NCBI GenBank assembly: GCA_038222225.1
Contig: JBBRHV010000006.1
Span: 1,626-65,625 of the forward strand
Length of the DNA stretch: 64,000 nt
Source of the DNA: Candidatus Omnitrophota bacterium
GTDB taxonomy: Bacteria; Omnitrophota; Gorgyraeia; Zapsychrales; JANLHA01
Direction: 5' to 3'
In this document: positions 3-58,805 of the stretch, piece after piece
How the letters are laid out: each line of letters opens with the position of its first letter
Numbering within the stretch: the stretch's first letter is position 1
Translations under genes and position numbers: made by a program
Notes under the pieces: generated by a model
Database searches by the model: none
Told to the model about the DNA's origin: nothing
What the model saw: only the letters and a program-made list of their open reading frames with translations

Positions 3-3000
3 TCTGATCAAAGGCCCAATTCTTCAGAGCCACTAGAAAACAATAAAGCGGTTGTTTCCAAGCTTCTGGCCGGGGTTGTGGTTCTGGTGAGCTTGGTATG
101 GCCGCTTGTTTTGTCCAAGGCCTTTGTATCAAAATATCTGGCGTTCACGCTTTGGGGCACATTGGGAGAAGGATATGTTTGGCAGCTCCTCACGTACAGT
201 TTTCTCCATACGAATCCTTTGCATTTGACCTTCAATGTGATCGCGTTTGTTTTCTTCGCGAATTTCATAGAGAGGGCAGTGGGGGTCAAAAGATTTTTGA
301 CTCTCTTTATCGGAGCAAGTGTTGCCGGAGCAGTCTTCCAGGTGCTGGCAATGGCCGCAAACAGTTTCACCTCGCCGGAATTAGCGGAGGCACTGGATAT
401 CACTCCTCTCATCGGACTCTCAGCAGTAGTAGCCGGGCTGATCGGAGCCTTCGGCGTTGTGCTGCGTGATCAGAAAGTGACATTCTTACTGTTGTTCATT
501 ATTCCGTTCCGCATCAAGGCGCAGCGGTTGGCGCAGATGTTGGTCACCGTCAGCATTGCGGCGATCATTTTCAATATAGTTCGCGGGGCCCAGGGCGGGA
601 TCGCCCACGGGGCGCACCTCGGCGGGCTTATTTTTGGTTGGGTTTATACGGAATATTTGCGGCGTGCAGGAAAGATCGATACGTTCATTATTGAAGAGGA
701 GAAACCCAAGGATCCTTCCGGAACCAACGCGGCGGTATTATCCAACTCAGATCCGGAAGGGGGAGTTGTTTCTTATCCGGCCCGTTCCAGCATCAGCGCT
801 GAAGAAAGGGAAGCAGCAAAACAGGGTACGGGCCCGGAAAATCTCAAGGGCTATGTCGTCAATTCACGGAAGATTCTGGGCGTTCCGGTTGAAGGTCTTG
901 AGATCAGTTATTCGGACCGCAGCGGACAAACAGTTGCTGAATATAAGCCGGGCCGTGTTGCCATTGATCTTTTGGGCCTTGGAGCCCGGGCGCCGCCGAT
1001 CGATCTCGAGCATTCTGCAAAATCCCGTCGCTTCCAGAGCATTATTCATGATGTTGTACGACAAATTATATTAGCTTCTCATTATTATGCCCTTTCAGAG
1101 AAAGATGTCCGTCAGGTTTCAGCCCGGCACTTTATCGGCCGGCAGCAAAAAGTTCAGAATTTTCTGGATCAGGAATTTAATCTTCGCGAATTCGGTCTGG
1201 TGTTTGATCCTGCCTATCTTGAGCTTTTAAGAAATTACCAGAGAATTGATCCTCAAATCGAAAGAATTAAAGAGCAGCTTGATCTCTTCAAGGGCGGGGC
1301 TGTGTCGTTTGAAGAGCTGTGTGAAGCTCTGGATGCGCGCGTTATTCTGAATGTGGCATCGCGTGCCTTATTTGAAGTGGGGAACAGTCCGTACCTGGTT
1401 AAAATTTACCGCGGCGGAACGCTGACGGCGAAGGCGTATGCCGCCGAAAAACAATTTTATAGAGAATATAACCCAACGGTCCAGCCGGAGCTGGTTTATT
1501 GTGATGACAATCTGCAGGCCTTGGTTGTGACGGATTTGAACCAGCTGGGATTGGTGCGCATGTTTGATTTTATTCAAGGGCCGTTCATTACGGAAGAATT
1601 GTTGGGTTGTTCGATTTCTTCCATGGCCCATGCCTTGGCGCAGCTGCATAGCAGCGCTGACGTGGCCTCGCAAACCGGTGAGCGGAAATTTGCTGAACTC
1701 AGGCATGAAGTGGACCGGGCGGTGGAGGTCTTAAGAGCGGCCGGGTTCCAAGGCCTTCCCGATGGAAAGAGCCTGGAGGATTTTCTTGCGCGATTCCAAG
1801 ATTCAGTAGTCGGAGAAAATGAACGATTGGTTCACGGCGATTATCTGATGTGGAATATTTTTGTTGACCCGGCAAGCGGAGAGGTGCGGGCCCTCATTGA
1901 CGGTGAGATGAGCGGTCTTGATTCTGCCGCTAAAGAGATGGCGAACACGATCCTGGGATTGATCGATGCCCGCAAGAATCATCCGTTCTTAATCAGTCAA
2001 ACTGCGGAGATGTTACGGTCGTTTTGGAGAGAATATATCCGGGAGACGAAAGACATTACCGGGCAGGAGATTTCTCCGGCGTTTGAGACTCGGGTCCATT
2101 TTTATTGCGCGGTCCAGTTGCTGATTGGCGCCAGAGTTGCGCATGAGAAATGGGCTAAATGGGCCCATTTCAGAATTGAGATGGCCAGGTTTTTCCTTAA
2201 TCAGGAAGCATTTTCATTGGAAGCTTTCATTGAGTTTTTGAATCATAATATTGGCAAACAACCGATCGGTTGGGTCGGGAATTTTGATGTTGCGACTCAG
2301 CACGGGCAGAGGCCGGGCTCGGGCGTTGAGATAATGATTGATGAAACAGGTTGGGCTGATTTCTTTGCCGAGGTTTGGGTTCCAGGAAACATCGGGGATC
2401 CGATTTTTGCATTGGGTATCGGAGCGGAATTACGTGTGACAAACAGAGACACCGGCGTTGTTTCGATTTGGAGGCCAGTGGAATTTTGTCATTTTGCGGG
2501 GAATAATTATCAATTTAGAGGAAGCGTGTTTTATCTCCAGGCGGGATCGTATGATGTGGAACCATCCTTCTCAGCGGATATGGGAGAAACGTGGTTTATT
2601 CCGCAACTCCCTTATGGCCCGTGTCATCTGACAGTGACAAAAGCATTGTCTGGGGAAGCGCCTTCAGAAAAGATAGTGAGTGTGGTCTTTTCTGACCTTC
2701 ACGGTGAGTTGAATGGTTTCCGTTCAGCGCTTGTAAAGCTCGGTATGATTTTACCGCAAAATAACCCGATGGAAGATATTTGGATTTCTCAAGATGTGAC
2801 GGTGGTTGTGGATGGAGATATCATGGATCGTGGTTTGCGACAGAAAGAGTTATACCACTATATCTGCCATCTCATGTTGACCGCCGAAGAAAGCCGTAAT
2901 CGGGTCATCTTTATCTTAGGAAATCATGAGCTGCTTCATCTTCAGGGGACTCCGGATGATTGGACAGCTCATGCGCTTACAGAAGTGATTAGAGAAGGTA

Positions 3001-6000
3001 TTCTTCGAGGAGATATTGTGGCAGCCGCGTATCTAGGTGGGCGTCTGATAGTTCATGCGGGAATTTTACCTTTTATTACCATGGATTTGATAAAGACATT
3101 ACGCCCAGGATTTTTGACTGTCGTTGCCCATCGGTCAGGAAAGTTCGTAAAGGATCTTACCGCGGTTGAAGTTGCCATCGAATTGAATAAAACACATAGC
3201 GTTCTTTCTGCTGACTCTATCGTGAATGAATTCAATCGGAGATTGCGGTTGGCGGTTGAGAAAGGCGATTATTCTGACGTTATTTTCCAGAGAGGGAACG
3301 CTCATTTTGGCGAGAACAAAAGGCCTGGAGAGTCGGGATATATACCCGGAGGCATATTCTGGGCAGACTATGAAAACGAATTGCGGCTGGTTGACCCGCG
3401 TGCGCTTATAGCGCAGATCGGAGGACATAGGGAGGGGAATGCGCTCCGTTGGACAAAGGGAGCCAGGGCTGTGAACGTCAATCTTTGTTATAAAGAGGGA
3501 TTTGGACGCAGCTCCGGAGTCGCTGTGTTTGATGGACAAAACTGGAAAGCTGTTTATTTTGATGGCCGGCCCATGCAAATTATTCCTGCTGTTATGGAGC
3601 GTGCTGTAAAACGACAGACAACAAATTCGGCAGCAGGTCAAGGCGGAACCAACGCGGCTGTTCTTGAGGGTGCGCCTTTTGAAGAACCGGAAACGGGTCG
3701 GATGAGCAGGCGAAGCATGCTGAAAATGCTGGCGCTGGCAGGAGCAAGCTTGCCGTTCATGACAACGACTGCTTTTGCTGATGAACCGACGGTTGATGAA
3801 GTTTTGACGGAACTTTTGAGCACTCAAACAGCGCATGGCCTCATTAAGAGTTTCAAGGGCACAACCGATACCTTCATGCAGAATCAGGCCGTGACCTATG
3901 ATCAGGCAGCCGCCGGGATCGCAGCTCTTGCGGCCGGAAGGACGGCGGAAGCGGTCAGGATTTTTAATTTCTTTTATAACCAGCATAATGGAGGAGATCC
4001 TGTCTGGAACGGGTTTGTGAATATGTATGATGCGACCCGCGGGGTCAAGGGCAACGAGCGCACGATCCACACAGGCCCGAACATCTGGATGGCGATGTTC
4101 AGCCTTCATCTTTATATGGCAAGCAGCGGTCAACAGGCCACGAAGGCCTTGACCCTTGCCAAAGCGCTCATGCAGTGGGCCAGGGGTTTGAATCATCGCG
4201 ATGGAGCGGTTGCCCTTGGACCGGTCCCCAATAATAATATTTTCTCAACAGAACATAACCTTGATTATTTCGCCTTCCTTAAAGGAATACAGTCGTTTTT
4301 GTCCGCGGCAGAAGCGGCGATCGTTCAAGCAGAAATGGACGGGGTTGGAACATGGTTAAAGACACATGCTTATGACCCGGCCAGAAGATTGTTCAAACGC
4401 GGAGCATATGAAAACCCGGTTGTCTATGCTACAGATACGTCAAGCTTTGCATTTTTATTGGGATCGCAGGTTCTGGAAGATTGGGGCATTGTTCGCTCAA
4501 CATTCATCGGCCAGTCCGATGCTGCCTATCGTGTCGGGACACGCGGTTTTGATGTGGCGAGTGTCGAGAACGCCAATTGGACCCCGCGTTCACGTTATGT
4601 CTTCAGAGAGTTTACTCTTCAGATGGCGGTAGGATTTTTGGTGATGGCTGATGATGAACACGATCGAGGCAATTTCACGCTGGAAAAAACGTATCGTGAT
4701 AAGGCTCAGCTCTATGCTTCTCAATCTGGCATAGATGGTGATTATCAATATTGTGAACAGACCGGGGTTCAGCTCTTTTATGATATTCCGAGCTGGAAAA
4801 CAATTAATGGTCAGTCGGCTTCGGTCATGGCCTGGAAGATATTTGCACTTCTCGGTTTCAACCCGTTTGGATTTGTTACAAAGGTGCGGCTGTCCGTCAG
4901 GCGTCTGGCGGCAACTGGAAATATGGAGTTGACTTTGCGCAAGGAAAGTATGGCGTCGCTCACTGCCGAGATTCTTTATTCAGATGACCTGGGAGATCAG
5001 AAAGAATGGAAGAGCGCCGGTTCAGTGGATTTGAGCGGCCTAAGGGCGGTTTGGGTCGATAACGGTTCTCAGACCACAACACATCCGTCGCAAAGCTCAA
5101 GGAGATTCTACCGAGTCTCGGCTGTAAATTCGTCTGTCCAGGGATTGGGCGCAGTCCATCAGGAGTCTAACGGTTTAGTGCCAGAGACGGTATTAATTGG
5201 GTCAAGCGCAGAGTATGGTCAAGAGTTCAAAGATGCGAATGCAGCAGTTTTGCAGGGGAAATTTGTTCAGACAGTGAAGACCAAAGGATCTGGGCTTAAT
5301 CGCTTTGACCTCGGGCGTTGGGGACGCGGGGCACTGCATTCAGTTCTTGCGCTAACACTGCTCACATCCGGTTGTGAGAAAAAAGAGGATACCCAGGGAG
5401 ATGCGTTGTCGGGAGTCGCGGTTCAGCCTGTTGATAGGAGCGCATTGGAGAACAGGATCAAGGAAGAGGTCCGGAAACTAGAGTATTCTGACAAGAACGC
5501 GGAGGATTTTGTAACGATGCTACGTCAATGGAAGAATGCTCAAGGCCAACCGGTTCTTACTGCGTGGGAGCAGAGCATTCTTAATGCCCGGAAACAATAT
5601 GAGCAGGGAGCCATGACAGCCGATCAGTTGGCCGGGATCGAAGCCGGGGTTGTTGGAGAAGTTGCGATGAGGATCGCTGAAGAATTTTCCGCGAATAATA
5701 ATGCTTTTGAATTGACCGATCTGATTGAAAAGAAACAGTCACAGTGTGTCAGCAGGTCAATGGCGGTAGCTATCGTCGGGAATGTACTTGGATTTAAGGT
5801 TGACTTTCTTGATGTTGATGCCAAGGAGATCAGGGCGATTGACGTTCCATTGGCGGAAAGAACTGTGGCGCATGCGGCCACCCTTGTACATTTGACCGGC
5901 GGGACCGTGATCATCGCCGATTCAGCGCTACGGTTTGTAAGCCGGCCGTTTTTAATGGAAGAAACCTACGCCGCAGTCGGGAACTATTGGGAACTTAAGA

Positions 6001-9000
6001 ACAGGAACGAACCGTTGTTGCTGCATGGACGAATCAGGAAGGCGTCTCTTTTAGCAGAGATTTATAACAATCGAGGCAACGCCTATGGAAGAGCCGGTCG
6101 TTATGAGGAAGCCTTCGCGCTGATGGCGAAAGCGATGGAAATCGATCCGGCATTGGCTGCAGCTTATTACAATCGGGGAGTTCAATATCAGGATCTAGGC
6201 CGGGTAGCCGAGGCAGTGGCGGACTATACAAAAGCGATCGAGCTTGATCCAAGAGATGCTGCTCCATATTGCAATCGGGGGAATATTTACAATACCGCAG
6301 GACGGGATGCTGAGGCTGTTGCTGATTATACGAAGGCCATTGAGCTTGATCCGCAATTAGCAGTGGTGTATTTCAATCGGGGAAATATTTATGGCAGATC
6401 AGATCGGCCAGAGGAGGCGATTGCGGATTTGACGAAAGTGATCGGGCTGAATCCGGAAGATGCCCAGGCTTATTACAGGCGGGCAGTGATTTACGGAAGA
6501 GTCGGTCAGTTAGAGAGCGCCAAAGCAGATCTCTTAAAGGTGCTGAATTTAAGTTCGGATGAAAAGCAAAAAGAACAGATCAAAGCTGCTGTTCGCAAGA
6601 TTGATGACATGCTTAAAGAAATGCCTAAGAAGAGCGCATCATCCAGCCACTCTGTTAAAAACGCTGAAACCAACGCAGCGATCCTTTATCCGTCACGCTT
6701 GGTGCCTGGACAAACGCCGGACTGGGCAATAAAATTCAGAACGACGTTGCCTAGCGATTTTGTTGAGGCGGCCGAGTCAGAGGATGGAGAGCAGGGCGTT
6801 GACAAGGTCATGTCGCTGGGGATTTGCCAGGATTCGCCGGACGTCTCGGAGCTTTTATCAAGATTTTATCGAGGATTGATGGAGAATAGCAACCCATCCG
6901 AGGTCCGCAGTCATTTGATTTATGACACGTGGTTAAAACTTAAAGAGAAGAAGATGGATGAATGGAACGCGACATTGGCGGTGTGGTTTACGTATGTGGT
7001 CTTTCAAAAAGCTTTAAGCATAGAAGCAAAACGATTAGCACAAAAGAATGCTCCGGCGCCTTCTGTTGAGGCATCCACAGAAGTCGCTACAGAACCATCT
7101 TCAAAAGGGCAGGAAGAAGGGGCGTCTGCCCGGGAAGATGAGCGTTACTTGGGGATTGTGATCGAGGTGGAAGGGTTTGGCCAGGTCACACTGACCGAAC
7201 GCATCGCCCGAAACAGCCGGACGCTTCTTTTTAAGACGAATCACCCTGGGCTTTTGATCAAACTTTTTGATCTGAACCACACCAGCATCGCCGGAGCCTT
7301 TGATCCGGTGATCGTCCAGAATTTTGAATTGGAACGCAATAATTTTGTCGAGGTCGCGAAGATCGATGAGCTGAGGCCGTATATTCCGCATTATTATCAG
7401 AGCGGCATCATCAAAGAGAGCAAGTACGCTTTCATCGCCATGGAATACATTGAAGGCACGGACTTAAAGAGCTGGCGGGAACAGGTTATTAACGGACGCA
7501 GTGAAAAGACTTTGACCGCCATTGAGTTCTGGCAGATGATGTCCCAGGCGATGAGCATTTTAAGAATATTCCACAAGTATGACCTGATCTTTTCTGATTA
7601 TAAACTTGAGAATATTCTAAGGCTGGCAGACGGACGTCTGAGGTTCGTTGATCTGGGAAGTGTTTTCCTTATTCATGGCTCGATCAAACCGCAGGATTTT
7701 CCGTATTCAGCAACAATGGAGGATTCGGAAGTTTTTGAAAACGCTGTCACTTTGAAGAACGGAAAGCCGCTGGCGAAAATTTCCGATATCTTCTGTGTGG
7801 GTGTGAGCCTGTTTGAATTCGCCACAGGCCAGGACCGTTTGACGCTGAGTCGTGAATATGCGGATATGCTTTTGACTCATTTACGCGTTATCAACCCGCG
7901 GATGTCTGAAACCCGGCTGTATTTTAATTATTATCCTCATCTTAAGGGAAAATTACCGACGCTGGAAGATCAGCTGCGTGAAGGATACGTCTTTTTTGCT
8001 GATTTTTGGCATTTGCTGCACGAAGTTCTTAAATATACCCAAGACGGTTATGAAGACATGGGACAGGCTGAAAAGGATGTTGTCCTGTTGTCGGCGGGGA
8101 TCGATTTTATCCGTAAGCAGCTTGGGCCTCTGGGCTGGGTGGCAGAGCCTGTTGCCCGGGCGACAGTTCTTAGACGCGTCCGGGTTGACAGTATTCATGA
8201 TCTGCTTTTGACGTTCCACAGCCCCTTGGGAGCGGAGGTCGTTGATGACCTTCGCCGTCACAACTGTTTTGTTGGTTGTGCTGAATCACAGTTCGGACAG
8301 CAGGGTTTCGTGGAACAGATGAGCACTTGGGACGTGCGTCTGAATTCGCACACTCAGCATTGGGCGGTCCAGGCGCCGGTCGCATTCAGGCATGATACAC
8401 AAGAAGCCGGTGCGTTGTTCTTGCAGCAGACCTACACGGATGAGGATGGCCATCGGTATTATCACATCACAAGCATGGAGGAGGCGGATGAATTGCCGAA
8501 CGGGGAAAAATTGACCCTGGCGCATTTGGAGGATGATCCGTACGCTTGGCTGGGAGCTCCATCGCAGGAAGATAATCAGGGTGGAAACTCTAAGAAAAAG
8601 CCTGTTCCAGCTCCTGAGAAAGAAAAGATAGTCATTGCGGGTAACGAAAGTGAGAAGCAGAAGAAAAAAACCAAAAGAAAATCCAGGAGGCAAAAGCTTC
8701 CAAAACCGACGACACGAGAGGAGGCCATCGCGTTGCTGATCCAAGCGGCCGGACGTGTTCCTTCGAACATTGCAAAAACCCCGCATCTTGTGGCCGACTT
8801 TTCACGCGGAGAGTTGACCGCAGCCAAGATCAAGAGCATGGCAAGGCAATGGGGGATTACGGGATATGATGTGCCGATCTCGAATTTGCCTTTTAGAGCG
8901 TATTCACGGAATGCTTCTTCAGACGAGCAAACAAATTCCTCTGTTCTGAACGAAGATATTTCAAAAACCGGACCTCCGCAGGGCTTTATTCATGTGGATG

Positions 9001-12000
9001 TCCATCCGGAAATTTGTTCGTTTAACGCCCTTGCTGAAGTTCAGCATCAATTTGGGGAGCTCACCACCATTGTTGTTGTTTATAGACGAGCCGCCGCTCT
9101 TCTTCAAAGGAAGCCGGTTTATGCCTCGCGTGAAAATGATATCATCATTCATTCCGACGGGATTATTTCTCAGGATCAGCTTATTTCGAAAATAAAAGGC
9201 CCTATCGCGCGCCTGTTGGTAACCGGCAATGAATTTGAAAGCTGTGTTGCCCGGGCTGTTTTTTCCATCAGAGAATTTATGCGGGATCAATATTCTGCCG
9301 GGTTTGTCTTGGATGTTCATTTTCCGATGGATTTGATCGTTGCCAATCGTCATGACTATCGCGATGGGGGATATCAAAAGATGATCGCGAATATAAAAGG
9401 CGGGGACTTTTTCTACAGCTATAAATTTCAAGCCCGTCGGATTGCCTATGACATCTATGATGGAACCGAACTGATCTGCCCTTGTGGGGAGGGAAGCGAA
9501 AATATTTCCAATCTTTATGTATGGCCATCTTTACAGAGCATGAAAGATGAATTAAGCCGAGGAACCGGCGGGACCAACGGGGCTGTTCTTGAATCAGGAG
9601 AGGGCGGCGCCTACAAGGAATTGATTTGTCGGTTTGACATGAAAGAAGATTATGAGGCGGATGATTGGAAGGAATCACGGGTTCTTAAGCGCGTGGCACT
9701 TATGAAACAGATCAGGTTGGGTTGGAAATATCCTCAGATGGGAGAACCGTCGGAACAATGGCTCAATGAGCTGAGAGAACTCGTTCTTCATCGTCTTTGG
9801 ACAAAGCTTCAAAAAGCACATCGTGGAGACATGTTTTTCCCTCAAGACATGGTTTCTCTCAATCGGTCGCTGAATCAGCCGTTTGTTTTTATCGTCGATG
9901 AACTTTTAAAGAACGCCCTTGATGCCCAGGCCTTGGCAGGGCAAAGCGGAAATGTCCATCTTGCGAGATCGTTGCAAGGCGGAACATTCGTGATGGCGGT
10001 TTCTGATAACGGAATCGGCGTCCGTCGCCCATTCTTAGGCTCAGAGCAGCTGGCTTGTATTGAGTCTTTGGCAGATCAGCAGAAGAGACGTAATACTCGT
10101 TTGGAAGCAAGTGATGGGGCTGGATTGATCTGGGTTCAGTATCTGGTCGCCATGCGGGGAGGTAAGCTTGAAGTCGAATCTCCCGGTCGCAATGAAGCCA
10201 GGACTACGGTTGTTGTGTCCTTGCCGGCGGATGCGTTAACGGTCATTGACAAGACGGGCTTAGGTTCTCAGACAAATGCTGCAGTCCTTCAAAAGAGAGA
10301 AGATGTCGCTACGCGGTTTATTTTTAGGTTAGCTGATCATTATGGTCTTTCTTCCACTTGTGATCCGCAGGAGATCCTTCAGGTTCTTCGTGCCAGGGGA
10401 ATCTTGAGTTCAGGGGAAGAAAGGGCGTTTGTCAGATATAGAAAAATTTTAAAACAGATGTATCCGGAGCTGAGCCTTGGGCAGGCTGAAGCACGCTGGA
10501 CGGAGGGCTACACATTTTTCGGGAATAATTCTTCTGAGGATTGGGAGCTTTCCGGACTGACGGAAGATTTTACGGTCATGGTTAAGAAACACATCGAAGG
10601 GATCCGGGCCGTTGAACACACCGATCATCCTGCGGATCAGGGCTGGTGGAAGGAAGATGGGCTGAAAATAAGAGTGATCCGGATTACGGATAGTCTTGAT
10701 TTAAAGGCGGCGTTACCGAACGAAAAAACAGAAAACCTGCCGCTGTCATCTGATGATGAAAACGGTTCACTGCACCTCTTTGAGTTTTTGTTCAAGAAGA
10801 TCTTTATTGAGCCAAAATATTTTGGCCTGGTAGCTTTCAAAGAAGGAAGGCCTGTTGGTGTATATGGGGTTTTTGTTTTAAATGATTGGAGAACGATCTC
10901 TGGGCGCGGATTATATGTCGTTCCATGGGAAAGGTATAAGAAAACAAATATCGGGTGGATGCTGGTCTCAAGGATGGCGGAATTGTTCGCGCTCAATGGC
11001 TATAAGTATCTTTATATCCCTGTGGCCAACCGTCCGTCGGCGCAGAAATTTTTTGAGAACGTGTCGGACAATACTGGACGCTTCCAGTTTTTCACAGAAA
11101 CAAAACGGAACGATGACGGAAAAATTCAAAAGGTTGCTGTGAAGCTGCAGGAAAGGTTCACTCCGGTTCAATGGGACATTGATCTTAAGCGTCAGATCGG
11201 CCAAGTCAACAGCGCGGTATTAAATACGAGCCTGTTGCAGCAGGTCCAAAATATGGAGGCAATGTTTAAAGCCTATGAATCGATTCTTAGTGACCATGGC
11301 CGACAGATACACGAGAGAGTTCGAGTGGTTTTAAGAGCAGCTTCTCAAGGCGTGATGAATGCAGAGCAGCAAAAAGAAGTTCGGGCGCTCGTGGCGTTGA
11401 TGCCTGATCCGCAGCATATTGATATTGAATCCGGCGGAGAAAAGAATTGGATCCGTTGGTTTGATTTAAGCCCGGAAAGACTGGGCGCATCTTTAGATCA
11501 AAGCATTGCCGATGGATGTGCGTGGCCGTGCCTGCATTGTGCGGCGTACAATGGCCATGCCAAAACAGTGATGGAGCCGCTTCCTGTTGTGATCGCAAAA
11601 ATTTTAAGCAGAACACAAACGGATATTATTTATCCATTCCAGTTCGATCTGATTTCTTGGCGGGATCTTTTCTTTGGAGTCGGCATTTCGGGATTAGCAG
11701 AGTTTATATCACGGTATAACCCGCAATATCAATTACGGTCATTGCCGACACGAGGTTGGGATAGCGATGATGCCTTTGTTCAGAACGAAGCCCTGCATCT
11801 TGCGCAGCTTAAAATCGCTAGTGGTATGTTCATTCTTTCATTCCATCTGTGCCATCAGCGGTATGACATCTTGCCGGCTATTGCGCAGGCGGTCAGGAAC
11901 GGAGACCGTGCAGAACTCGATGCACTGATCGATGTTTATGCAGCACGTTATGCGAATGTGATCGCTACGTTAAGTCCTGCGCTTGATCGGGTCAGCGTAT

Positions 12001-15000
12001 TTTTACCCGGAGATGTATACGCTCCCGTCTTTGAAGAGGCGACGATCCGGGCATTGAAAAAAGTGTTGAGCATCTTAAACGCTTCGCATGAAGAGATCAA
12101 GCCGCTTGTTGGTGAGATCAGTCATGGGGTCCTTGGGATCCGGGATATGAGATTTTTAAACATCGGCGGAAGGCAGATTTCGTTTATTTCTCGAACGATC
12201 CAACACGACGGCCGCGGGCGTGACTTTTTGGGACGATTGTGCATGGCTGAAAGCGGGGATTTGAACGGCAGGAAGGCGAATATGAATTTGCTTCGCATGG
12301 TCAAAGAACATGGCCGTCCGTATCCGGTTTCTGTCCTGTTTGCCTCTGGACGAACGATTGTCCAAACGCCGCAAGTCAACAGCGCGGTGCTTTTGACCGA
12401 ACCGCTGAGAAAAATGTTCCGCGCATTGAAACCGTGGCTGGTTATCGGCGCCGTTGCTGCCTGGGTGGGTTTTGAAAGAATGAATGCGAATCTCTTTTCT
12501 GGCCCTGAAGGGGGCGCGCATGAGAAATGGATCTTTCTCGACCTTGTTTTAGCCGCCGGTGTTATTGAAGAAATTCAATACAGGTTTGGCGTGTACAGGC
12601 ATGTCTTGAGGCCTTATTTCGGCGTTGTGCTGTCAGTCATCATCAGTTCTTTAGTTTTTGTGGCGGTCCATCTGATCTTTGCGGATGGGACCTTGATCGG
12701 TTTAATATATGTCCTGTTGTTTGGTGTAATTTCTGCCTTGATTTATGAAACCAGCGGCAAGCTGCGCTACGCTATTCTTCTGCACATGATCTCGAACTTG
12801 ATTTGGATCGGCATGAGCGCCGGTCCGTTTGCATATTTTATATTCACGGTCTCGCTTATGGCGCTGATGAAATTAAGCTTTGTTCTATTTATCTTCTATC
12901 ATACGGTCATCGCTGGCGTTAATGAGAGAGGAATCAAGGCCTTTGAACGTTTTGGAAAAACTGATTCGATTGATGAATGGTTAGGTCAAAAAGTTATCAG
13001 ACCGGCGGTGGCTGTGATTAAAAGCCGATGGGCAAAACTTGGCATGAATAAAATGTGGCGAGCAAAAAGCCCGGATGGAAAAGAACATCGCCGCATATAT
13101 GCTTTGGCATTCACAATCAGTGGATTGATCCTGACCTTGCAGTTTGCCGGAGACAGGATGTTCAGATTGTTCTATCCGGTCTCGCCAAGACCTTTGATCA
13201 CTCAAGAAGAGATGCGACAGAACATTCAGCGGGAGAGGGATAAGTTTGAAGCAGCAAAACGTGCCGCCCTCGCACAGACGCCAGGACTCACCACCAATGA
13301 TATTTTTGGTGTGATGTATTCTTACAAAGCGGATCTTTCATTGATCCGGGTTGTTTTATTCCATGACGGTCGCGCATACAGCGTGGAGGTGACATCGTCA
13401 GGTGAGACAATTGTCGATCCGGTAGCGTTATCATGCTACGAGGGCATTCTTACGCTGTTATTTTCCGACGGGCATATGGACAGACATCGTGAACTTCCTT
13501 TAAACGAACGGACTTGGAATGAAGTTGAAGCTTGGAAAAATAGATTGCCTCAAAAACCTGCACCTAAAGTACGGTCGAAACAGGGCGCGCAAAATTCATA
13601 TCATAAATTCAATACAGCGAGTTTGTACAAAGGGGTCAACAGCGCGGTGTTGTTGGGTTACTCGGATAAAGAAGCGTGGAACAAAGAGTCCGGGTTTTTG
13701 CTGGATACATTTTTTACATTTGAGCAGTATGTCGCGGCGGCTTTATATGATCCGGCCTGGGGATTTTATGGCAGTGGGAAGATCAAACTAGGGTTTGATT
13801 TCGGAACCATGCCGATCGCGCTGTCGCCGTTTTTCGGAGAGAAGGTCGCTGAGCGTGTGTACGAGATGTATATCGGCATGCTGAAAGCCGGTACCATCAG
13901 GCCGGATGAGCCGTTTTACATGATCGAGTTTGGGGCGGGAACCGGCGTGTTGGCAAGGGACGTACTGGCATTCTTTAGAGAACAAGCTAAACGCGGACGG
14001 GTTTATAAACGATTCTATGACAATTTGCATTATGTGATCAGCGACCGATCTAGCCCGCTGCTGGAAAAACAAAAGCAGAAGAATGCGGAGTTCTTGGAGG
14101 AAGGCAAGATCCAGTTTGTGATCGGCGATGCTCAAGAGCTTGAAACATTCTTGGAGAAAGAGCGTCCGATCAAGGGAGTTGTATTCTCCAATGAGCTTTT
14201 GGATGCCTTCCCGTCCCATAAAGTTTACATGGATGAACAGGGAGTGGCACATGCCATGGTCTCGATACCGGCTCTTGTCGATCAGCACAGTCCTGATCTC
14301 AGGCCTGGCAGCAGAGGCCGCCTATCGTCAACGATCAGCTTGTTGGCGCAAGTCGGAAAGGTGCTTAAGGCCCACGGGCTTTCGCTTGAAACATTAACTC
14401 AAAAAAGCCGTGAGTTCGCAGGGCGGTCGAATGTAGTCAAACAGATGGTGGATGATGGGGCCGTTGTTTTAAGTCGGGAGGATTTCTGCCGTATCCAGGA
14501 AATTTTCTCCGGTGAGAAAGTCAGTATGTATCGCGAGCTTATCCACAGGGTTATGGCGTTCTCTGAGATGACGGTTCCCGCGGCGCTGGTGCCCGGTTTA
14601 AAGGAATATTTAGATTTCCACAAAGATGAAATGAGGACGGCCCTTCAGGGAGAGTCAGGATGCGCAGTTGTCTCTTCCGGGTGGCTTTCGTTTGCAAAGC
14701 ATGTTTCCGGTTTGATCGATCAGGGATATGTCTTTACGATCGATTATGGAGAGACTACGGCGACATTGTTGAGCGCCAGGCGCAGAGAGAATTTTCCGAT
14801 TTCGATCTATCATCGACGTTTGGGAAGAGAGCGCAATCCTTATCTTCACCCTGGTGATGTGGACATATCGGTTGCGCCGGATTTCACGGTCTTTGCCCAG
14901 GCGGGGCTTGTTCATGGCTTGGTTCCGGTTTATCACGGGGAGCTCCGGTTCTTGCAGGCAGATTCAACCGAAAGGATTGACTCCGCGCAAACCGCTTCAC

Positions 15001-18000
15001 GGGTTAAGCGGCTGTTTACCCAGATGGCGATCGAGGCCAATATTGAAATTAATGCTCTTCGAGCACATGGATTTTCGGGTGATCAATCTCAGAGCATCGC
15101 TGCTGCGATGGAGCGTTATTTTAAAGAGGGTCGCCAGCCTGCGCCGGGAGAGCTTGACGCTAAAGCTCAGGCGGAATTTGACAGCCTTCTTCAATTCGGA
15201 CGTAACGATGCCGATGACAAATATCCTATCTGGGTTGAGCGTTTCTTGCATTCATCCGGGCATAAGATCTTGATCCAGCAAAAGGCGGGCACAGATCCAC
15301 ATTATTCGTTTGGCCAGCCGATCTTGCCGCTGTTTCAGGTGAAGCCCAAGACATCTTTGGCAGTTTCGAATGATTTTATCGGAACAAATTCATCCGTGAT
15401 CGACGATCAAAAGGTTGTTGTTGATATCCGCAGCCTGGCTGAAGATGCCTACGATGAAGCGTTTGCCACACGCCATTCGAATTATAGACGTCATGACTCC
15501 CATCGAGTCCATCATTGCGAGGTCAACACCAATATTTTGCAGGGATTCCTTCAGCTAAAAGGATACAGGGCTATTCAAGTTTTTCATACACCAAAAGGTG
15601 AACCGCAATATTTTGTTATGTTTATGGTTAACGGTGAGGTTTGGGTTGCTGAGCCAACTTGGCAGCTCATGATTCCTGAAGAGAATCGCACTGATGATCT
15701 TCCGCATTGTCTGGTTTTCAAAGAAGCGGATCTTGAGAAAATCATGCAACAATTCGGTATTGTTGAACATTGCCGCGTAAGTTGGCGCAAATCGGTGAGT
15801 GAGAATCGAGACAAACTATTTGAGACCGGGACAAGGGATTCTCTTGGGACGAACGGATCGGTTTTAAATTCAGGCATAACAGGTGTTAAAAAAGGAATAG
15901 GGTATGTGAGTTCGCTCTGGCAAAGGATGCGGCATGGGCGCGCAGACTCTTTTGATCTTCATCAGATGGAGGCTGCCTTCGGATTGCATGTTTTGGGACG
16001 GTTCCTTCGCCGTCGCCCAACGGTTCTGGTGATTCGCGGGAAGGGGCCGTTAAGCGGGCTGCAGGTTCTGGCAGAGGGCTTGGCCGCTCAAAAGTATAAT
16101 GTTGTTCTGTTCAATTATGATTACAGATTGCCGATCAGACAACTAAGCGCTTCGCTGATCGCAGCCTGGAGAGTATTCCAGAAGGCCCATCCACGGCGGA
16201 CGGAGTTTGGGGTGGTGGCGTATTCTTACGGGACAACAGTTCTTCGTTTGGCTGTGGTGAAATCGTTAGATGAGGTCTTCAGAGAGGGGCACATCATTGA
16301 GCTGGCACCGCTCTTGGGCGGATCTAGGAGCGCCTTGAGCGCATCGACGCCGGAGGGGATTGCCTTGGCGCGGTCTTCCGGCAAAGCGGATATGATCCAG
16401 ATAGGGAAGGCCTTGGATCCGAATGGTGAGTTCCAGGCGGAGTTGTTTAATGAAATCAATATTGGATTATATGAGGACCGGTTCAGCCGTGCTTCGCGTT
16501 TTGTGATTATCGCCGAAGGAGATGAACTTGCGCCGCGCCTGGACCGCCGGCCGGATCATTTCACGCGAAGGTATCAGGAGAATCTCGGAGAACATGTCGA
16601 AGTCCGTATTAAGCGGCAGCCGCATGATGCTTTGCCCTCAGAGCCTGCGGCGGTTACAAAAGTGATCGAGCGGTTGAACTCTCGACTTAGACCCGGTGTC
16701 GATACCGCTGAGAGAAAAGCAGACGGCCGTCAAGGGAGAGACATCAATAGCGCGGTGTTGTCCTCTGGGGCTGAGCCGGATTTTTCTTTCGACAAAACAA
16801 TTTCGCCCGATGTTCATCGTGCCAAGATTCGTTATGTAAGCCAAAAGAGAATCGCTCAGGATATGTCACGCACTAGCCATGACCGGGTTCGGGCTAAGGA
16901 AGCCTATTTGCTTGCAGTTCGCGATACGGCGATCAATTTAGCCCGGGCTAGGGATGAGCGGGTCGCTGCTGTACTGCGGAAAATATGTGATACGATCGTG
17001 GTTCGTGCCGGCCCTATGAAATATTTATTGGGGGCCTACCGTTCAAAAGAATTGTTCCTTGATGAATCTCTGCTTTCTGATCCTCAACAGTATTATGAAT
17101 TAATTCTCACATTATTGTATGAAGCGCGAGCGATTGCTTACCCGGCAGGTTTTAATGCGGAAAATGAGGGGTTTGCCCAAGATTGTTTGGTCAACGGGCT
17201 TATTCCAGAACGGATCCATCCGCGCACCGCCAAAGAGCGTCAAAAGATCGTGGAGGCGCTCAAGCTTTTACCAAAAATTCAATCCCCGGTGAATTATCTT
17301 TTAGTCGTGCCGATGTATAAGGAAATGTTCCGTTTGAGTCCTGAGGGCGAAGACGCGTTGCGGCGCAAGGTTTTGGCCATGGCTGTTCTGCATCGGTTGA
17401 ATCCGAATTTGAACGGCCGCATGCTTCTGGTTGATGACGGAACTCCATCCCTGGCATCTGAGGCGTGTGCCCGTGAGATTTGGCGTCAGATCCAAAAGGA
17501 ATTCCAGGCTCGCGGCGAGGTACTGGATCCGGAAGCCGTTACGTTTGCCCATGTCTCCGTTGAGGAAAAGAAAAGCAAGAAGAGCAGAAAAGGATGGGCG
17601 GTTCTGCGGGGGATGCGTTTGGCGCTGGAGCAGGGATGGGCAGATTATATTGGTTATACCGATACGGATATTTCAACAAATCTGCTTCAGATGCCGTTTA
17701 TTTTATGTCCCCTGATCGAGCGCACGGCTGACGTTGCGATCGGATCCCGTTGGGCCAGCGGCGGCAAACAGGAAGGTGTTTCGTTTAGACGGATGGTTTC
17801 AAGTAAAGTCTTTAATATGGCGGTTCATATGTTTCTGCCGGTTTTGTGGCGGATCAGGGATACTCAGCGGGCGTTTAAATTGTTTAACCGGTCAGTATTA
17901 AGAACCATTTTGCCGTATGCCAAGGAACCCGGCTTAGCGATTGATACAGAGCTATTAACACTTGTCCGTATCGCCGGACGGAAAATCATTGAAGTTCCTA

Positions 18001-21000
18001 TTGCATGGATTGATTCTGCCGAGGCAAGTACGATCGATCTGGGGAAGTCTGCCAAAGAAATGCTTTTGGCAATTATGCTGCAGTCGCGCCATATGTTCGA
18101 TCTCAGGCTGATTTTGAATCTTCGGCTTGCAGAGAGGCTGAACCCTGAAAGGAAAGGAACAGATCTCGAGGTTAATAGCGCTGTTCTGGATGCAGAGAGT
18201 TTAAGTTGGAGTGGCTTCATTGAATTTGAACATGCCGGAATGAAACTGCTGGCTATTCAACGCAAGACAGAAGGGCTTGCCGGACGCAGCCTGGCCCGCG
18301 CGAGTATCGAAATTTATCAGCTGATCAGAGGTGTTTCTGAGCCTGCGCTGACCGGATTTGTTGACGTCTGGTTCCGGGAAGACCGAACAGCGGCGGTCCA
18401 TAAAGAATTTTCTTGGAATGATTATTATGCCTTAGGTGTCTTGGGACATGCCCATGGGCCGTTGAAATTAGGTTATTCTTTAGACGGGTATGATACTGTC
18501 TGGAGCTATGGCGAACGCCGGTTTCTGGTTGGGGAAGACCATCCGGCCTTGTGGGTCCATGCGCAATCACGCAATCAGGGGTTAGGGAAGGTCCTGTTTG
18601 GGGCCGCAGCCGAACTGGCCCGCTTGCGCAATTGTCATCTGCTTCGTGTTGAAGAATGCCAGACAGGCGGGCGCAGTCTGTATAGACAGTTTGTTCCGGC
18701 GGATCAACAGCAAAATATTGACGGATCTTCGGTCGTGCTTCAGCTGCAAGGCCGTGATGCACAAAAGACGGGTGAATCTCAAAAGGAAACGAATGCGTCG
18801 ATTTCTGGCGTTGAGGCGGAGCATAACAGTTCGGCTGGGATGCAGGAAAGGTTGGCAAGACTTTGTGAGGAGGCCCTTCATCAAACAGTTTTCCCTGTTC
18901 GAGGCCAAAGCACGGAGGATGTGAAGCGGCTTCTTATCGAGGCGGATAAACAGACGCATAGTATTTTCAGATTCCATTTGGCAAGACTGGTTCTGGCAGA
19001 ATTAGGCCGTTGTTGTTCAGGGGCTAAAAAAGGATGGATCTTCGGTGATGTCGGGGAAGGAACACTTGATCGGATCGGTCCGTTGGGCGATATTGATCTC
19101 ATTATCGGAGTCGCGACCGAAGAAGATAAAGTTGGCGCGGCCCAAAATTTAGCGAGCATTAACGCGTATGTGACGTACTGGTTAAATAAGCTGCAGCATA
19201 CCAAAATAGAGGAGCTCATTGAAACAAGGAATGCGAAAAGAATTTTAACATTGGCAGAGATTGAGGGTAACCCGTTCTATATCCACAATGTCGACAGTCC
19301 TGCTTCGCTTCTTTTTGATGCCGAAACAATTTCAGATGTTCGACGCGCAAACGGATCTGAGTCTGCCGAGGCCAACAGCGCGATCCTGAATCGAGAGGAC
19401 GCGCTGGCCCGGCTTCGCAATCCGGATTATGTTGAGCCGCAAGAATTGACCAGCACCGATCTTTTGGGGACGTGTGAAAAAATCACGCGCTGCACAAATA
19501 CAAGAGTTCAATGCTCATTTGTTCCTCATCAGCAGCATGCTCCCGGAGGTGTCTATGTTGCGGCAGGCGTTGCGCAGACAGCAAGGATGACGGCAACGGG
19601 GCAGGTGCATACACAGACTCAATTTGAAATCACGATCAGGGCAGGTCAAAGAGAGGACATGAAACATGTTTTGCGCATGATCTTAGAGAAGCTGGTGCGT
19701 TTGAGGGATAAGGTGGCTCCGGAAGCATTGGACGCCTTTGATGTTCTGGCGCAAAGAAAGGCCGCCGACATTTCTCTTCATGCCGCAGAGGGAGAATCGG
19801 CGCTTAGGTGGTCACATATGATCGGGCTTAAGGTTGAGGCGGAGAAGCATTTTAATCATGTGCCGGTGAGCATTCAGGCAGATGTGATCTTGACTACGAT
19901 GCCCCGGAGGGAGGCGGCACAGCGTTTGGTTGTTAAATTAAGTCAGGAACAACGGTTTATGATATTGGCTCCGACCGGGTTAAGCCCGCGGGAGATTGTG
20001 GATCAGCTTCTTGCGAAAGAAACCGTTGAGGAGGCAATTAAAAATATCTTGAGGAAAGGGATCCTTCGCGGGATTCATGCCCATGATGATATCCGAAAAG
20101 CGTTTCAGGGCAGCGGGATTTTATGTGAAGCGCTCGTGTCGGATGCCAGGGTCAACCGGATCCATATTTTCAGCGTGCCCAAAAGGATCACGGTTTTAAA
20201 AAGTTATCACTCAACGCCGGAAGATGTGTGGGACGCTTTGCGCCGGGAGAAGGGGCTTAATAATCAGCTTCAGGCGGATTTTGCTGAAAGCGTTCATTCT
20301 CAGATTGCCGCTGATATAGTCATGCGGCGTTTAGGTTTGTGGCGTCTAAAAGAAAAGAAAGACGGGTCTCTGTTTAGAGTCTTAACCCGTTTATTCCGGT
20401 TGAGGCGTTCGTCTTACGGTTTGGCCCAGGCCAGGGAAGACGTGGCACACATCAATTCCCAAATGGCAGGATCTGTTGCAGACTCCCTGACGTGGGTTTC
20501 GGCACCAACATATTTCTTGAGTCTTTCTGATGAGGAACGCAAGGGCCTTGAGGAGGAGATCAAATTTCAACTTCGAAAATTTGGGCCGAAGGCTGTTGAC
20601 CAGGAAGAATTTCAATTGAAATTGAGAGAGTCGATCGCGCAGCGTTGGAGAATCCAGAAGGGGATGACGCCGGAAGAAGTTTTTGACCAATGCGCGCTGT
20701 ATTGGATCGTGGAAGTTGCAAATAACTTCATTCCGAAATTCAATGCCATGAGGTCACGCTCAGAGCGGTTTGAATTTTTGAAGGCCCAGCTTCCGCAGTG
20801 GTATCCGGCGTTGGTAGAGACGTTAGATTCTCTTCAGAGTTTATTAAATGACGGAAGTACATCTTTTGATGTTCGACAGCAGATAGGAACACTGGGCATC
20901 TCAGTTGCGGAACAGGACCTTTTATCAAAAGCATTTTTAGATGAATTTGGGTTTGTGCTGCTTTTGGGACAGTCCGCTCAGGGAACAAAGTCAGATTTAT

Positions 21001-56891: not shown

Positions 56892-57002
56892 CTGGCCGGG
56901 ATTTCTATAAAATGGTTTTGGTAAAAATAAAAAATTATATGAATTTTAGATTTTATGTATAATAAGTGAACTTGCGGTTGTTTTATTAGGGATATTGAAG
57001 AC

Positions 57003-57011
57003 GAAGGAGAG
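57003..57011 (+). promoter_or_regulatory. Shine-Dalgarno sequence (GGAGAGG) for the aldolase gene
   Basis: aaggagaggaaaaa ATG: a purine-rich SD lies 6-8 nt upstream of the ATG at 57018. The 125-bp AT-rich intergenic region upstream also contains TATAAT at about 56957-56962. Confidence 0.5.
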
Positions 57012-57017
57012 GAAAAA

Positions 57018-57968
57018 ATGTATAGACCGGAAATTCGGGTGTTTGACTGCACGATCCGCGATGGCGGGTTGATGAACAACCATTTATTTGATCACAGTTT
57101 TGTCAGAGATGTTTATAAAGGATTATCCGAGGCTGGGGTTGACTATATTGAGCTCGGATATAAAAATTCCAAAGATCTTTTTTCGCCGGAGGAATACGGC
57201 GCCTGGAAATTCTGTGAGGATGACGAAATCCGAAAAGTGACCGAAGGCATTGAATCCAATGCCAAGATCTCGGTGATGGTGGATATCGGCCGGGTGAATA
57301 TGGAAGATATAAAACCGGCTTCTGAGAGTCCCGTGCACATGGTCCGCGTGGCCAGTTATGTGAAGGATATTGATAAGGGGATCTCGATGGCCAATGAATT
57401 CCATGATAAGGGTTATGAAACCACCATTAATATCATGGCTATTTCCAAAGATCAGGGGCCGGACCTCGAAGCCGCTCTTTATCAGATCGAAAAGGAAAGC
57501 AAGGCGGATGTGGTGTATATTGTGGATAGTTTTGGGTATTTTTATCAGGAAAATATTGAGCATTTGACCAAGTTGTATAAGAGGATTTTAAAGACACGCG
57601 AGATTGGTTTTCATGGTCATAATAATCAGCAGTTGGCCTTCGGCAACACGATTGAAGCGATTATCCATGGGGCGAATTTTCTGGATGCAACAATTTTCGG
57701 GATCGGCCGGGCTGCCGGGAATTGTCCGATCGAGCTTTTGCTCGGGTTCTTAAAGAATCCGAAATTTGATATCCGTCCGGTTCTTGATCTGATCTCCCGG
57801 GATTTTGTCCCGTTGCGTGAAAAGATCGAATGGGGATATGTCATTCCTTACGCGATCGCCGGTATGCTCAATGAGCATCCTCGCGCTGCTTTGGCTTTGC
57901 GAAAGACGGAGAAGAAAGAGAATTACCGTGATTTTTATGAGAGTTTGACTAATACGGGGTTGGATTAA
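57018..57968 (+). CDS. DRE-TIM metallolyase, 4-hydroxy-2-oxovalerate aldolase (DmpG/BphI)-like / pyruvate carboxyltransferase family
   Basis: DCTIRDGG resembles the DVTLRDGxH start, VYIVDSFG resembles IYMADSGG, and GFHGHNNQQLAFGNTIEAIIHGANFLDATIFGIGRAAGNCPIELL resembles [45 protein letters not shown] of HOA aldolases. A strong SD lies upstream. Confidence 0.8.
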   Translation: MYRPEIRVFDCTIRDGGLMNNHLFDHSFVRDVYKGLSEAGVDYIELGYKNSKDLFSPEEYGAWKFCEDDEIRKVTEGIESNAKISVMVDIGRVNMEDIKPASESPVHMVRVASYVKDIDKGISMANEFHDKGYETTINIMAISKDQGPDLEAALYQIEKESKADVVYIVDSFGYFYQENIEHLTKLYKRILKTREIGFHGHNNQQLAFGNTIEAIIHGANFLDATIFGIGRAAGNCPIELLLGFLKNPKFDIRPVLDLISRDFVPLREKIEWGYVIPYAIAGMLNEHPRAALALRKTEKKENYRDFYESLTNTGLD

Positions 57969-58147
57969 AAGACAGCGTAAAGGGAAGCGGCAGGTGATAG
58001 AAATACAATTGAAATATAATGGAAATACATAGAAATAAGAAATTCGGAAAAAGAGAAAGCTTAATCAGAGCAAGTAATCGTTAGGGTTTTTTATTTCAAT
58101 GTATGTCTATATTTTTCCATGTATTTCAATCTGTTTTTAATTTGAGT

Positions 58148-58777: not shown

Positions 58778-58805
58778 TGTCTTGTGATGATAAGAGGCAT
58801 AGATA

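Follow-up and report, generated by a model that had tools for sequence, protein, structure and literature searches.

Giant open reading frames (ORFs) are a known trait of the phylum Omnitrophota, where they are poorly conserved between genomes, membrane-anchored, and rich in divergent enzyme domains, including a set of HATPase_c, methyltransferase, and GNAT domains. Members of this phylum have been predicted to live as predators or episymbionts, and an action of the giant ORFs on host cells has been speculated. Several papers leave open whether the giants are single multi-megadalton proteins or are cut, one of them calling the cleavage points unknown, and structure prediction for their parts is reported to be blocked by the lack of known cut sites. 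A recent catalogue of giant genes (Nielsen and Lui, 2026, bioRxiv 10.64898/2026.06.07.730766) and Seymour et al. (2023) make no mention of a linker, junction, or cleavage motif. Here, we analyzed a stretch of 64,000 nucleotides from a Candidatus Omnitrophota bacterium (contig JBBRHV010000006.1, positions 1,626 to 65,625; the window, in the following). The window contains a single giant ORF (78..56891, + strand; 18,937 codons from GTG78), along which a short peptide recurs at 54 sites and divides the encoded protein into modules of the size of ordinary proteins. We tentatively propose that the product of this ORF may be a bacterial polyprotein that is cut at these junction peptides. A preliminary description of the window had pointed out a row of signaling domains in the first part of the ORF and had likened it to the effector arsenals of host-associated or predatory bacteria; the domains were found in our analysis, and no specific evidence for effectors was obtained.

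The heptapeptide [G/E]-[T/V/A]-N-[S/A]-[A/S]-V-L was strongly conserved at its third, sixth, and seventh positions, with Asn present at 51, Val at 47, and Leu at 42 of the 54 sites. The strict pattern N[AS][AS]VL occurred 33 times, compared with 0.12 expected from shuffles, and a looser pattern occurred 44 times in the frame of the ORF compared with 3 times in the five remaining frames of the window. The flanks were polar, with enrichment of Gly, Ser, Lys, Glu, and Asp. Within the junctions, the information content of third codon positions was only 0.15-0.25 bit, all four Val codons were in use, and Ser was encoded by both AGY and TCN. Because third positions were near random and Ser was drawn from both codon families, codon usage was taken to show purifying selection on the junction as a peptide, not as a DNA or RNA element. 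A DNA-level element was accordingly rejected, as third codon positions were uninformative and an Rfam search of the window found no RNA elements. In addition, two other roles were considered for the junction and rejected: an N-glycosylation sequon, since about half of the junctions read N-x-A, and self-cleavage driven by Ser or Thr, as in SEA domains or inteins, since Ala was as common as Ser after the Asn.

The 54 junctions delimited 55 modules (M01 to M55; selected modules in Table 1) of 19-1,011 amino acids (aa), with a median of 311 aa, and 45 of the 55 fell within 150-700 aa, as is usual for bacterial proteins. No Pfam domain spanned a junction, and each best-matching stretch lay inside one module. 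The paralogues M10, M42, and M38 aligned with each other from the first residue of the module, i.e., from the junction onward. The alanine dehydrogenase module M34 matched a solved alanine dehydrogenase (8hyh; E = 4e-49) from residue 2 of the enzyme, 28 aa past the junction. An exhaustive HMMER search with M07 to M10 yielded 67 relatives among 1.84 billion representative proteins, with none for M07 and M09, about 30 distant ones for M08, several of them within proteins of 1.3-6.5 thousand aa, and about 40 for M10. About ten of the M10 relatives were free-standing proteins of 380-437 aa, the first residue of which lay 0-13 residues from the position equivalent to the junction. The other M10 relatives lay in long partial proteins, for which the source name, where given, was always Omnitrophota. 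A scan of genome contigs with an alignment of the radical-SAM module returned nothing. The view of the preliminary description that such a toolkit is normally spread over many genes agreed with these data, in that the modules matched whole free-standing proteins and look like former separate genes.

Giant ORFs in syntenic position were identified in two ENA/JGI assemblies and one NCBI metagenome-assembled genome (MAG). In the closest relatives (L083, and L085, which is the same as L003), the giants shared only the last module, M55, with the present one, at 57-60% identity. Their other modules included an NAD-glutamate-dehydrogenase-like module (L085:~3800-5600), another Hanks-type kinase, and a SPASM radical-SAM enzyme. 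Their junction peptides read TNASVL, MNSAVL, INSAVL, TNAAVL, RNSSIL, and TNAAAL, so that the motif was kept between species though the flanking linker residues differed. Further, L083 carried an extra module of 582 aa (L083:606-2372) between TNAAVI and TNAAVL, at a place where L085 (~10007-10030) had a single TNAAAL, and the two junctions bracketing this module shared 15 identical nucleotides, ACCAACGCCGCGGTG. Because the extra module sits exactly between two junctions in L083 in place of one in L085, the alignment suggests that cassettes are gained or lost in frame at the junction codons. As far as sequence comparison goes, the modules were thus shown to be whole-protein units that are duplicated, gained, and lost as such.

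Inter-module peptides with other consensus sequences were also found in other giant fragments, which the module search had recovered, mostly at a spacing of 250-650 aa. These were SSP[VIL] in P0024 (9 observed, 0.2 expected), RTSP, as RTSP[MV], in P0018 (6 and 0.02), A[AP]AG in P0010 (9 and 0.31), RSPSG, within RRRSPSG, in P0013 (3 and 0.0), SSP[AV] in P0006 (4 and 0.05), and SSP[LIV] in P0002, from Omnitrophota (4 and 0.17); the motifs were picked after viewing k-mer counts, and these statistics are indicative only. All of the other giant fragments with a source name were from Omnitrophota. In P0024, the units placed between junctions included an HD domain, a methyltransferase, an M28 peptidase, a GHKL domain, and a sigma-70 factor in complete form.

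Two modules in the first part of the giant contained sequences resembling export signals. The signal of M03, similar to those of twin-arginine translocation (Tat) substrates, comprised SRRSMLK, a hydrophobic core, and AFA/D, and was near the twin-arginine consensus; the ORF contained only this one match to the Tat motif, compared with 0.04 expected. A Met is included in this signal, and its ATG was not preceded by a Shine-Dalgarno-like sequence. In M05, a basic n-region and a hydrophobic core were followed by LLTSG/C, as in lipoprotein signals, and the best NCBIfam TPR matches of the module included the TPR lipoproteins NlpI, Tgl, GltE, and PrsT. In addition, M11, M24, M28, M29, M40, M47, and M54 opened with a signal-like, anchor-like, or transmembrane segment. 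The ORF as a whole encoded 43-47 hydrophobic segments grouped in about 12 modules, as called by crude hydropathy scans in which KD19 >= 1.6 was taken as transmembrane grade. Neither in-frame ATG codons nor Shine-Dalgarno-like sequences were enriched after the junctions. Separate translation of the modules from internal starts was therefore rejected, and separate proteins, if any, would arise by proteolysis.

The reading that we favor, with a probability of roughly 45-50%, is that the giant ORF encodes a polyprotein. The ORF would be translated as one chain, anchored in the inner membrane through its transmembrane modules, and an endopeptidase recognizing the junction, with its invariant Asn followed by small-small-Val-Leu, would cut this chain. 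Candidate proteases within the ORF are the rhomboid M01, the CPBP-type protease M11, and M46, a possible zinc metalloprotease and thereby a candidate processing enzyme judging from its HExxH motif; an enzyme encoded elsewhere is equally possible. The released modules would act as ordinary proteins, of which M03 would be exported via its Tat-like and M05 via its lipoprotein-like signal, while M02, M06, and the GHKL ATPases would work at the cytoplasmic face.

The strongest competing explanation is an uncut chain, that is, a membrane-anchored scaffold of several megadaltons carrying about 55 enzymes like beads on a string, in which the junction would serve as a hinge, as a hand-off point for folding or chaperones, or as a docking element. 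This is the published default for giants with transmembrane helices and without a signal peptide, which are regarded as anchored in the inner membrane with their enzymes on the cytoplasmic face, and the polar, Gly/Ser-rich flanks of the junctions would suit a flexible linker. We nevertheless regard it as less likely than cleavage. The junction, with one near-invariant residue as in protease sites followed by small-small-Val-Leu, was far more specific than a hinge needs. Further, the consensus differed by lineage whereas the protein-like spacing was constant, which would fit co-evolution with a recognizing enzyme. The Tat-like and lipoprotein-like signals, as well as the complete sigma factor in P0024, would be hard to use while tethered in the middle of a chain, and in M05 the positive charges of the signal's n-region would lie on the wrong side of the membrane if the chain were uncut, breaking the positive-inside rule. 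Finally, a protease domain was located at the N-terminus, as in other giants.

Several points weigh against cleavage, among which the lack of a matching protease and a junction inside one homologous unit also favor the scaffold. Pfam and NCBIfam searches found no protease of known Asn-directed specificity, legumain/C13, C39, S8, and the MARTX cysteine protease domain being absent, and none of M01, M11, and M46 could be matched to the junction motif. For the rhomboid, the small P1 and hydrophobic P2' residues of the junction fit the recognition rules, but a large hydrophobic P4 was present at only 15 of 54 sites, and most junctions were without the adjacent transmembrane segment that rhomboids need. 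The signals of M03 and M05 might be relics or, in an uncut chain, membrane anchors. In addition, the junction SGGVNAAVLVP between M22 and M23 (22911-23846) was replaced by SMAEA in their paralogue M55 and by AITAA in the relative. Because the M22/M23 junction is a short insertion compared with the continuous M55, this alignment indicates that a junction can enter, or be lost from, one continuous unit and is not always a former gene boundary. To these points are added the crude nature of the transmembrane calls and the choice of the motifs of the other giants after the fact, and cleavage itself is predicted from sequence throughout.

A broader and somewhat less probable proposal, which we put forward as a tentative one, is that Omnitrophota giants may be operons written as one ORF. 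Former genes, dozens in number, would be joined by a lineage-specific cleavage peptide, such as N-[SA]-[AS]-V-L in the present giant or SSP[VIL], RTSP, and A[AP]AG in others. This peptide would co-evolve with a protease that is part of the chain itself (a rhomboid here; C39 or S8 elsewhere), the cut modules would reach the cytoplasm, the membrane, or the periplasm by their own signals, and cassettes would be swapped in frame at the junction codons. Such recombination would explain the extreme turnover of modules between close relatives.

The region flagged by the preliminary description comprised M02 to M08 (Table 1). With a score above the Pfam gathering cut-off as the criterion, profile searches located the APH-like kinase, the PPP-type phosphatase, the TPR array, the protein kinase, and the GHKL ATPase where they had been placed, and recovered the folds proposed for them, not unrelated ones. 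All five domains lay consecutively in the giant ORF. For the phosphatase, GDxxDRG and GNHE were found as described, and the motif given as GDxHG was present as SDLHG, with Ser in place of the first Gly. Two more GHKL domains had been claimed at 44790-46030; the first was detected in M43 (44598-45374) by HATPase_c (33.3 bits, cut-off 26.4), and the second, in M44, was discernible by the GHKL-like motifs IENAFDA and GGKGRGL only, without a profile match. Among the accompanying modules that had been named, GNAT and methyltransferase domains were recovered by Pfam, and the nucleotidyltransferase was not reproduced. Not listed in the preliminary description, but likewise present in the flagged region, were eight copies of the junction peptide, two orphan modules, and the signals of M03 and M05.

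In M02, no junction separated the kinase and phosphatase halves. The nearest solved structures were those of the ACAD11 kinase domain and hygromycin kinase for the APH half, and of the cold-active PPP-like phosphatase of Shewanella (1v73) for the other half. A word-indexed homology search with aa 217-1720, a range that includes M02, found no homologues, the same type of search with aa 2199-5104 found one weak kinase match only, and that with aa 401-3400 found TPR proteins only, its candidate list being saturated. A single-sequence AlphaFold2 model of M03 was unusable (pLDDT 37.6). The nearest solved relatives of the M06 kinase core were the bacterial Hanks kinases StkP (3.7e-6), PknB, and PknA; the Pkinase profile match began at model position 65, and the N-lobe, with the glycine-rich loop, the VAIK lysine, and the alpha-C glutamate, was not aligned. 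Pfam searches of M08, M43, and M44 returned no HisKA-type match; lacking this domain, these modules are, by their sequences, not classical histidine kinases. Within the first 10,000 aa, a range covering the flagged region, an anti-phage defense system was rejected, since PADLOC reported only generic kinase similarity there, of M06 to the PD-T4-6 and mad6 models.

The approximately 3,900 aa following the rhomboid domain, in which the flagged region lies, contained no transmembrane-grade segment, and the Tat-like and lipoprotein-like signals were the sole hydrophobic features. Assuming a GlpG-like topology of the rhomboid, this stretch would be cytoplasmic. M02, M06, and M08 were without a signal, and all three require ATP. 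On account of these features and the assumed GlpG-like topology, they are probably regulatory or modifying enzymes of the cytoplasmic side, acting on proteins or metabolites of the bacterium itself.

The preliminary description had instead suggested effectors, with the kinase, phosphatase, GHKL, nucleotidyltransferase, GNAT, and methyltransferase modules delivered or displayed to a host or prey. The predicted lifestyles of Omnitrophota and the proposed action of giant ORFs on host surfaces offer circumstantial support, the M03 and M05 signals could direct export, and the modules are very divergent, with a fast turnover between close relatives that is typical of conflict genes. However, Pfam, NCBIfam, and PADLOC revealed no secretion, translocation, or toxin domain, and M06 resembled bacterial Hanks kinases, not effector families. 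Most annotated modules need ATP, S-adenosylmethionine (SAM), NAD, pyridoxal phosphate (PLP), acetyl-CoA, or an Fe-S cluster and carry no signal, and housekeeping-type modules were present, namely alanine dehydrogenase in this giant and glutamate dehydrogenase in a relative. The flagged region, moreover, follows a rhomboid whose C-terminus would be cytoplasmic if it is GlpG-like. For anchored giants without a signal peptide, GHKL, methyltransferase, and GNAT domains together have already been published as a cytoplasmic-face 'signal-transduction/regulatory module'. The signaling toolkit is a recurring content class of Omnitrophota giants and not by itself evidence for effectors, and we consider an effector arsenal improbable.

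Even less probable is that the junction is an evolutionary seam without a role in the protein, left as a by-product of in-frame insertion or deletion of modules through short-repeat recombination or target-site duplication. The 15 identical nucleotides bracketing the extra module of L083, the location of module insertions and deletions at junctions, and the separate motif of each lineage would be expected of a seam. In contrast, the amino acids were kept over 54 junctions with near-random synonymous positions and both Ser codon families in use, and the motif was conserved between species with differing linker flanks. An artefact (a mis-assembly, a pseudogene, or several genes misread as one ORF) might be suspected from the 5' end outside the window and the orphan state of most modules, but it can practically be dismissed, as 56.8 kb without a stop at 49% GC cannot be chance, the 3' part (54530-59152) matched a Logan contig from run SRR19962012 at 100% identity, syntenic giants were present in the NCBI MAG and the two ENA/JGI assemblies, and neither internal start signals nor RNA elements were detected.

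Table 1. Features of the giant ORF. Coordinates are nucleotides of the window, with the strand where given; residues of the giant protein convert as nt = 78+3*(aa-1). Bit scores of domains are followed by the Pfam cut-off.
Feature	Coordinates	Residues or length	Description	Evidence or motifs
M01	78..725 +		Rhomboid intramembrane serine protease	Pfam Rhomboid 79.9 bits, model 2-141/143; weak GlpG match; HxxxN (HLTFN), GLSA (Ser), GAHLGG (His)
Junction M01/M02	720..740 +			SGTNAAVL
M02	726..3650 +	975 aa	APH/ChoK-like kinase and PPP-type metallophosphatase
APH (M02)	1371-1952	aa 432-625	Kinase domain	44.9 bits (23.2); Brenner motif HGDYLMWN, IDGE
Metallophos (M02)	2682-2963	aa 869-962	Phosphatase domain	34.5 bits (21.5); SDLHG, GDIMDRG, GNHE
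Junction M02/M03	3645..3665 +			GGTNAAVL
M03	3651..5126 +	492 aa	Orphan, opens with Tat-like signal	No Pfam match
Tat-like signal (M03)	3699-3782	aa 1208-1235	17 aa past junction	RMSRRSMLKMLALAGASLPFMTTTAFA/DEP
Weaker junction copy	5121-5141			AVNSSVQ
M04		37 aa	Between M03 and M05
Junction M04/M05	5232..5252 +			DANAAVL
M05	5238..6671 +	478 aa	Lipoprotein-like signal, then TPR array
Lipoprotein-like signal (M05)	about 5319-5375	aa ~1748-1766		...GRGALHSVLALTLLTSG/C
TPR array (M05)	6051-6593	aa 1992-2172		TPR_1 E = 1.5e-40
Junction M05/M06	6666..6686 +			ETNAAIL
M06	6672..8933 +	754 aa	Hanks-type Ser/Thr kinase core, flanks unannotated
Pkinase (M06)	7404-7844	aa 2443-2589	Kinase domain	45.2 bits (31.7); catalytic loop SDYKLEN, DFG-type Mg-binding motif DLG
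Junction M06/M07	8928..8948 +			QTNSSVL
M07	8934..9575 +	214 aa	Orphan	No Pfam match
Junction M07/M08	9570..9590 +			GTNGAVL
M08	9576..10274 +	233 aa	Stand-alone GHKL ATPase
HATPase_c (M08)	9888-10229	aa 3271-3384	ATPase domain	37.3 bits (26.4); N-box ELLKNALDA, G1 DNGIG, G2 DGAGL
Junction M08/M09	10269..10289 +		46 more junctions downstream	QTNAAVL
M10	11208..12377 +		Radical-SAM module	CAWPCLHC
M11	12378..13637 +		CPBP/Rce1-like intramembrane glutamic protease	Pfam Rce1-like 46.8 bits; EEIQYR, FVAVH, HMISN
M33-M34	32955..35492 +		PLP-dependent dehydratase-like; complete alanine dehydrogenase	Exactly one module each
M38	38808-39200		M10 paralogue
Tandem repeat (M40)	41109-41470	180 bp x 2	Doubles a coiled-coil-like 60-aa segment	91% identical
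M42	43386-44597		M10 paralogue
M43 and M44	44598..46187 +		GHKL (Pfam) in M43; GHKL-like in M44	M44 by motifs only
M46	46962..48893 +	644 aa	Orphan	HEWTH (HExxH) at 48189-48203, aa 16038; downstream Glu residues
M55	56070..56888 +		C-terminal module, terminal hydrophobic tail	Paralogue of M22+M23

The frame of the giant ORF was stop-free back to nucleotide 3 of the window and thus open at its 5' edge, and a start at GTG78 would truncate the first helix of the rhomboid. For these two reasons, translation may in fact start before the first letter of the window, and the gene may be longer than 18,937 codons. The ORF was non-repetitive, with a single tandem repeat (Table 1). The genes downstream were ordinary bacterial housekeeping genes encoding an HMGL-like enzyme, KDPG aldolase, a radical-SAM enzyme, MnmA, and MutL. 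The neighboring MnmA showed 81% identity to that of 'Candidatus Omnitrophota bacterium RA.bin146', followed by proteins from other phyla at 36-52%, and in RA.bin146 the HMGL-like gene likewise adjoined the end of a giant ORF that ran off the fetched stretch. On the basis of this identity and synteny, the host belongs to Omnitrophota.

The Pfam content of the giant comprised about 15 unrelated kinds of domain, none of which dominated. Housekeeping-type enzymes that need cytoplasmic cofactors were represented by the alanine dehydrogenase, the PLP dehydratase, the radical-SAM enzymes, methyltransferases, and GNATs, and a GT2-like module and peptidases were also present. M11 had weak NCBIfam matches to MrtS/MrtJ-like proteins in addition to its Pfam match. 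Roughly 35 of the 55 modules remained without annotation, and relaxed Pfam searches on 20 further modules yielded almost nothing. A PTS-HPr-like domain (30009-30230, aa ~9978-10051; 32.5 bits, cut-off 23) was located at the end of M28, after a nine-helix membrane module, and a SecA-type SEC-C zinc-binding motif (52632-52685, aa 17519-17536) opened M51 right after its junction and was followed by a GNAT domain. ARAGORN called an 87-nt tRNA-Gly(GCC) within the ORF (25332-25418, + strand), which is probably a false positive, since the Rfam tRNA model was below its threshold there. Long antisense ORFs overlay the giant gene (3135-4196 and 48030-48734, both on the - strand, and other minus-strand ORFs of 150-353 aa) and are probably by-products of its codon composition, given a GC skew of +0.12 to +0.27 throughout.

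Should cleavage be confirmed, the giant would be, by a wide margin, the largest polyprotein system known from a cellular organism, and it would represent a novel route to the co-expression of dozens of proteins in bacteria. The junction peptide provides module boundaries at residue level, with 54 predicted sites here and analogous ones in other giants, and giants can already be split along these boundaries before annotation or structure prediction. Further, the junctions offer a frame for how giant genes gain and lose modules, and they make the question of one protein or many directly testable in proteomes.

Compared with known systems, MARTX toxins, found in Vibrio and relatives, may be the closest bacterial precedent, by analogy, for how the giant might work. 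In these toxins, unrelated enzyme modules stand in a row and are released by a protease of the same chain that cuts the linkers. They are 3.5-5.3 thousand aa long, with about 3-5 effector modules, glycine-rich repeats, and type I secretion, and their protease is a C80 cysteine protease domain that is activated by inositol hexakisphosphate and cuts after Leu. The present giant differs from them in its approximately 55 modules, its Asn-centered junction, and its mostly housekeeping-type or regulatory enzymes, and no Pfam or NCBIfam match to the C80 domain, the glycine-rich repeats, or a type I secretion signal was obtained in it.

Viral polyproteins, such as those of picornaviruses and potyviruses and pp1ab of coronaviruses, yield many mature proteins from one ORF that also encodes the protease, and their boundaries are marked by a short conserved peptide with one invariant residue followed by small residues. 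Likewise, the segments of the giant correspond to complete proteins with a conserved short peptide at every boundary. In contrast, the giant is encoded by a gene of a cellular chromosome flanked by mnmA and mutL and is 3-8 times longer, its cleavage is predicted, and no chymotrypsin-like or papain-like protease was found in it.

Rhomboid substrates are recognized by a motif with a small P1, a hydrophobic P2', and a large hydrophobic P4 residue (Strisovsky et al., 2009; PMC2941825). With a cut after the second small residue of the junction, P1 would always be small (Ala or Ser) and P2' would be Leu at 42 of 54 sites, and an apparently active rhomboid heads the giant protein. In contrast to rhomboid substrates, most modules of the giant are probably cytoplasmic, whereas active sites of the GlpG type open to the periplasm.

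The closest resemblance was to other giants of the same phylum, of the Archaeovorin type (West-Roberts et al., 2023, bioRxiv 10.1101/2023.11.21.568195) or of class 1, 'multi-enzyme', with Pfam 'Module 1' (Nielsen and Lui, 2026), which share an ORF of more than 10,000 aa with many transmembrane segments. As in these multi-enzyme giants, the enzymes of the present one were divergent with none dominating and included HATPase_c domains, methyltransferases, GNATs, radical-SAM enzymes, TPRs, a GT2-like glycosyltransferase, and peptidases, the N-terminal domain was a protease, and conservation between genomes was poor. The N-terminal protease is C39 or S8 in other Omnitrophota giants and a rhomboid here. 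The SecA_DEAD and NUDIX domains of other giants were absent, with only the SEC-C motif found. Of the content listed for Archaeovorins (glycosyltransferases, methyltransferases, glycoside hydrolases, peptidases, SAM enzymes, and NUDIX), the present giant had methyltransferases, radical-SAM enzymes, peptidases, and the GT2-like module; neither a glycoside hydrolase nor a NUDIX domain was detected in it. It was also shorter than the cut-off of 30,000 aa (more than 90 kb) used by West-Roberts et al. (2023), with 56.8 kb in the window and its 5' end open. In a full-text search of the relevant papers on Omnitrophota giants, no regular junction peptide, protein-sized modules, cassette insertion or deletion at junctions, or internal export signals were found. 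The giant itself is a new example of a described type, and its junction-delimited module structure is, by that search, the new part.

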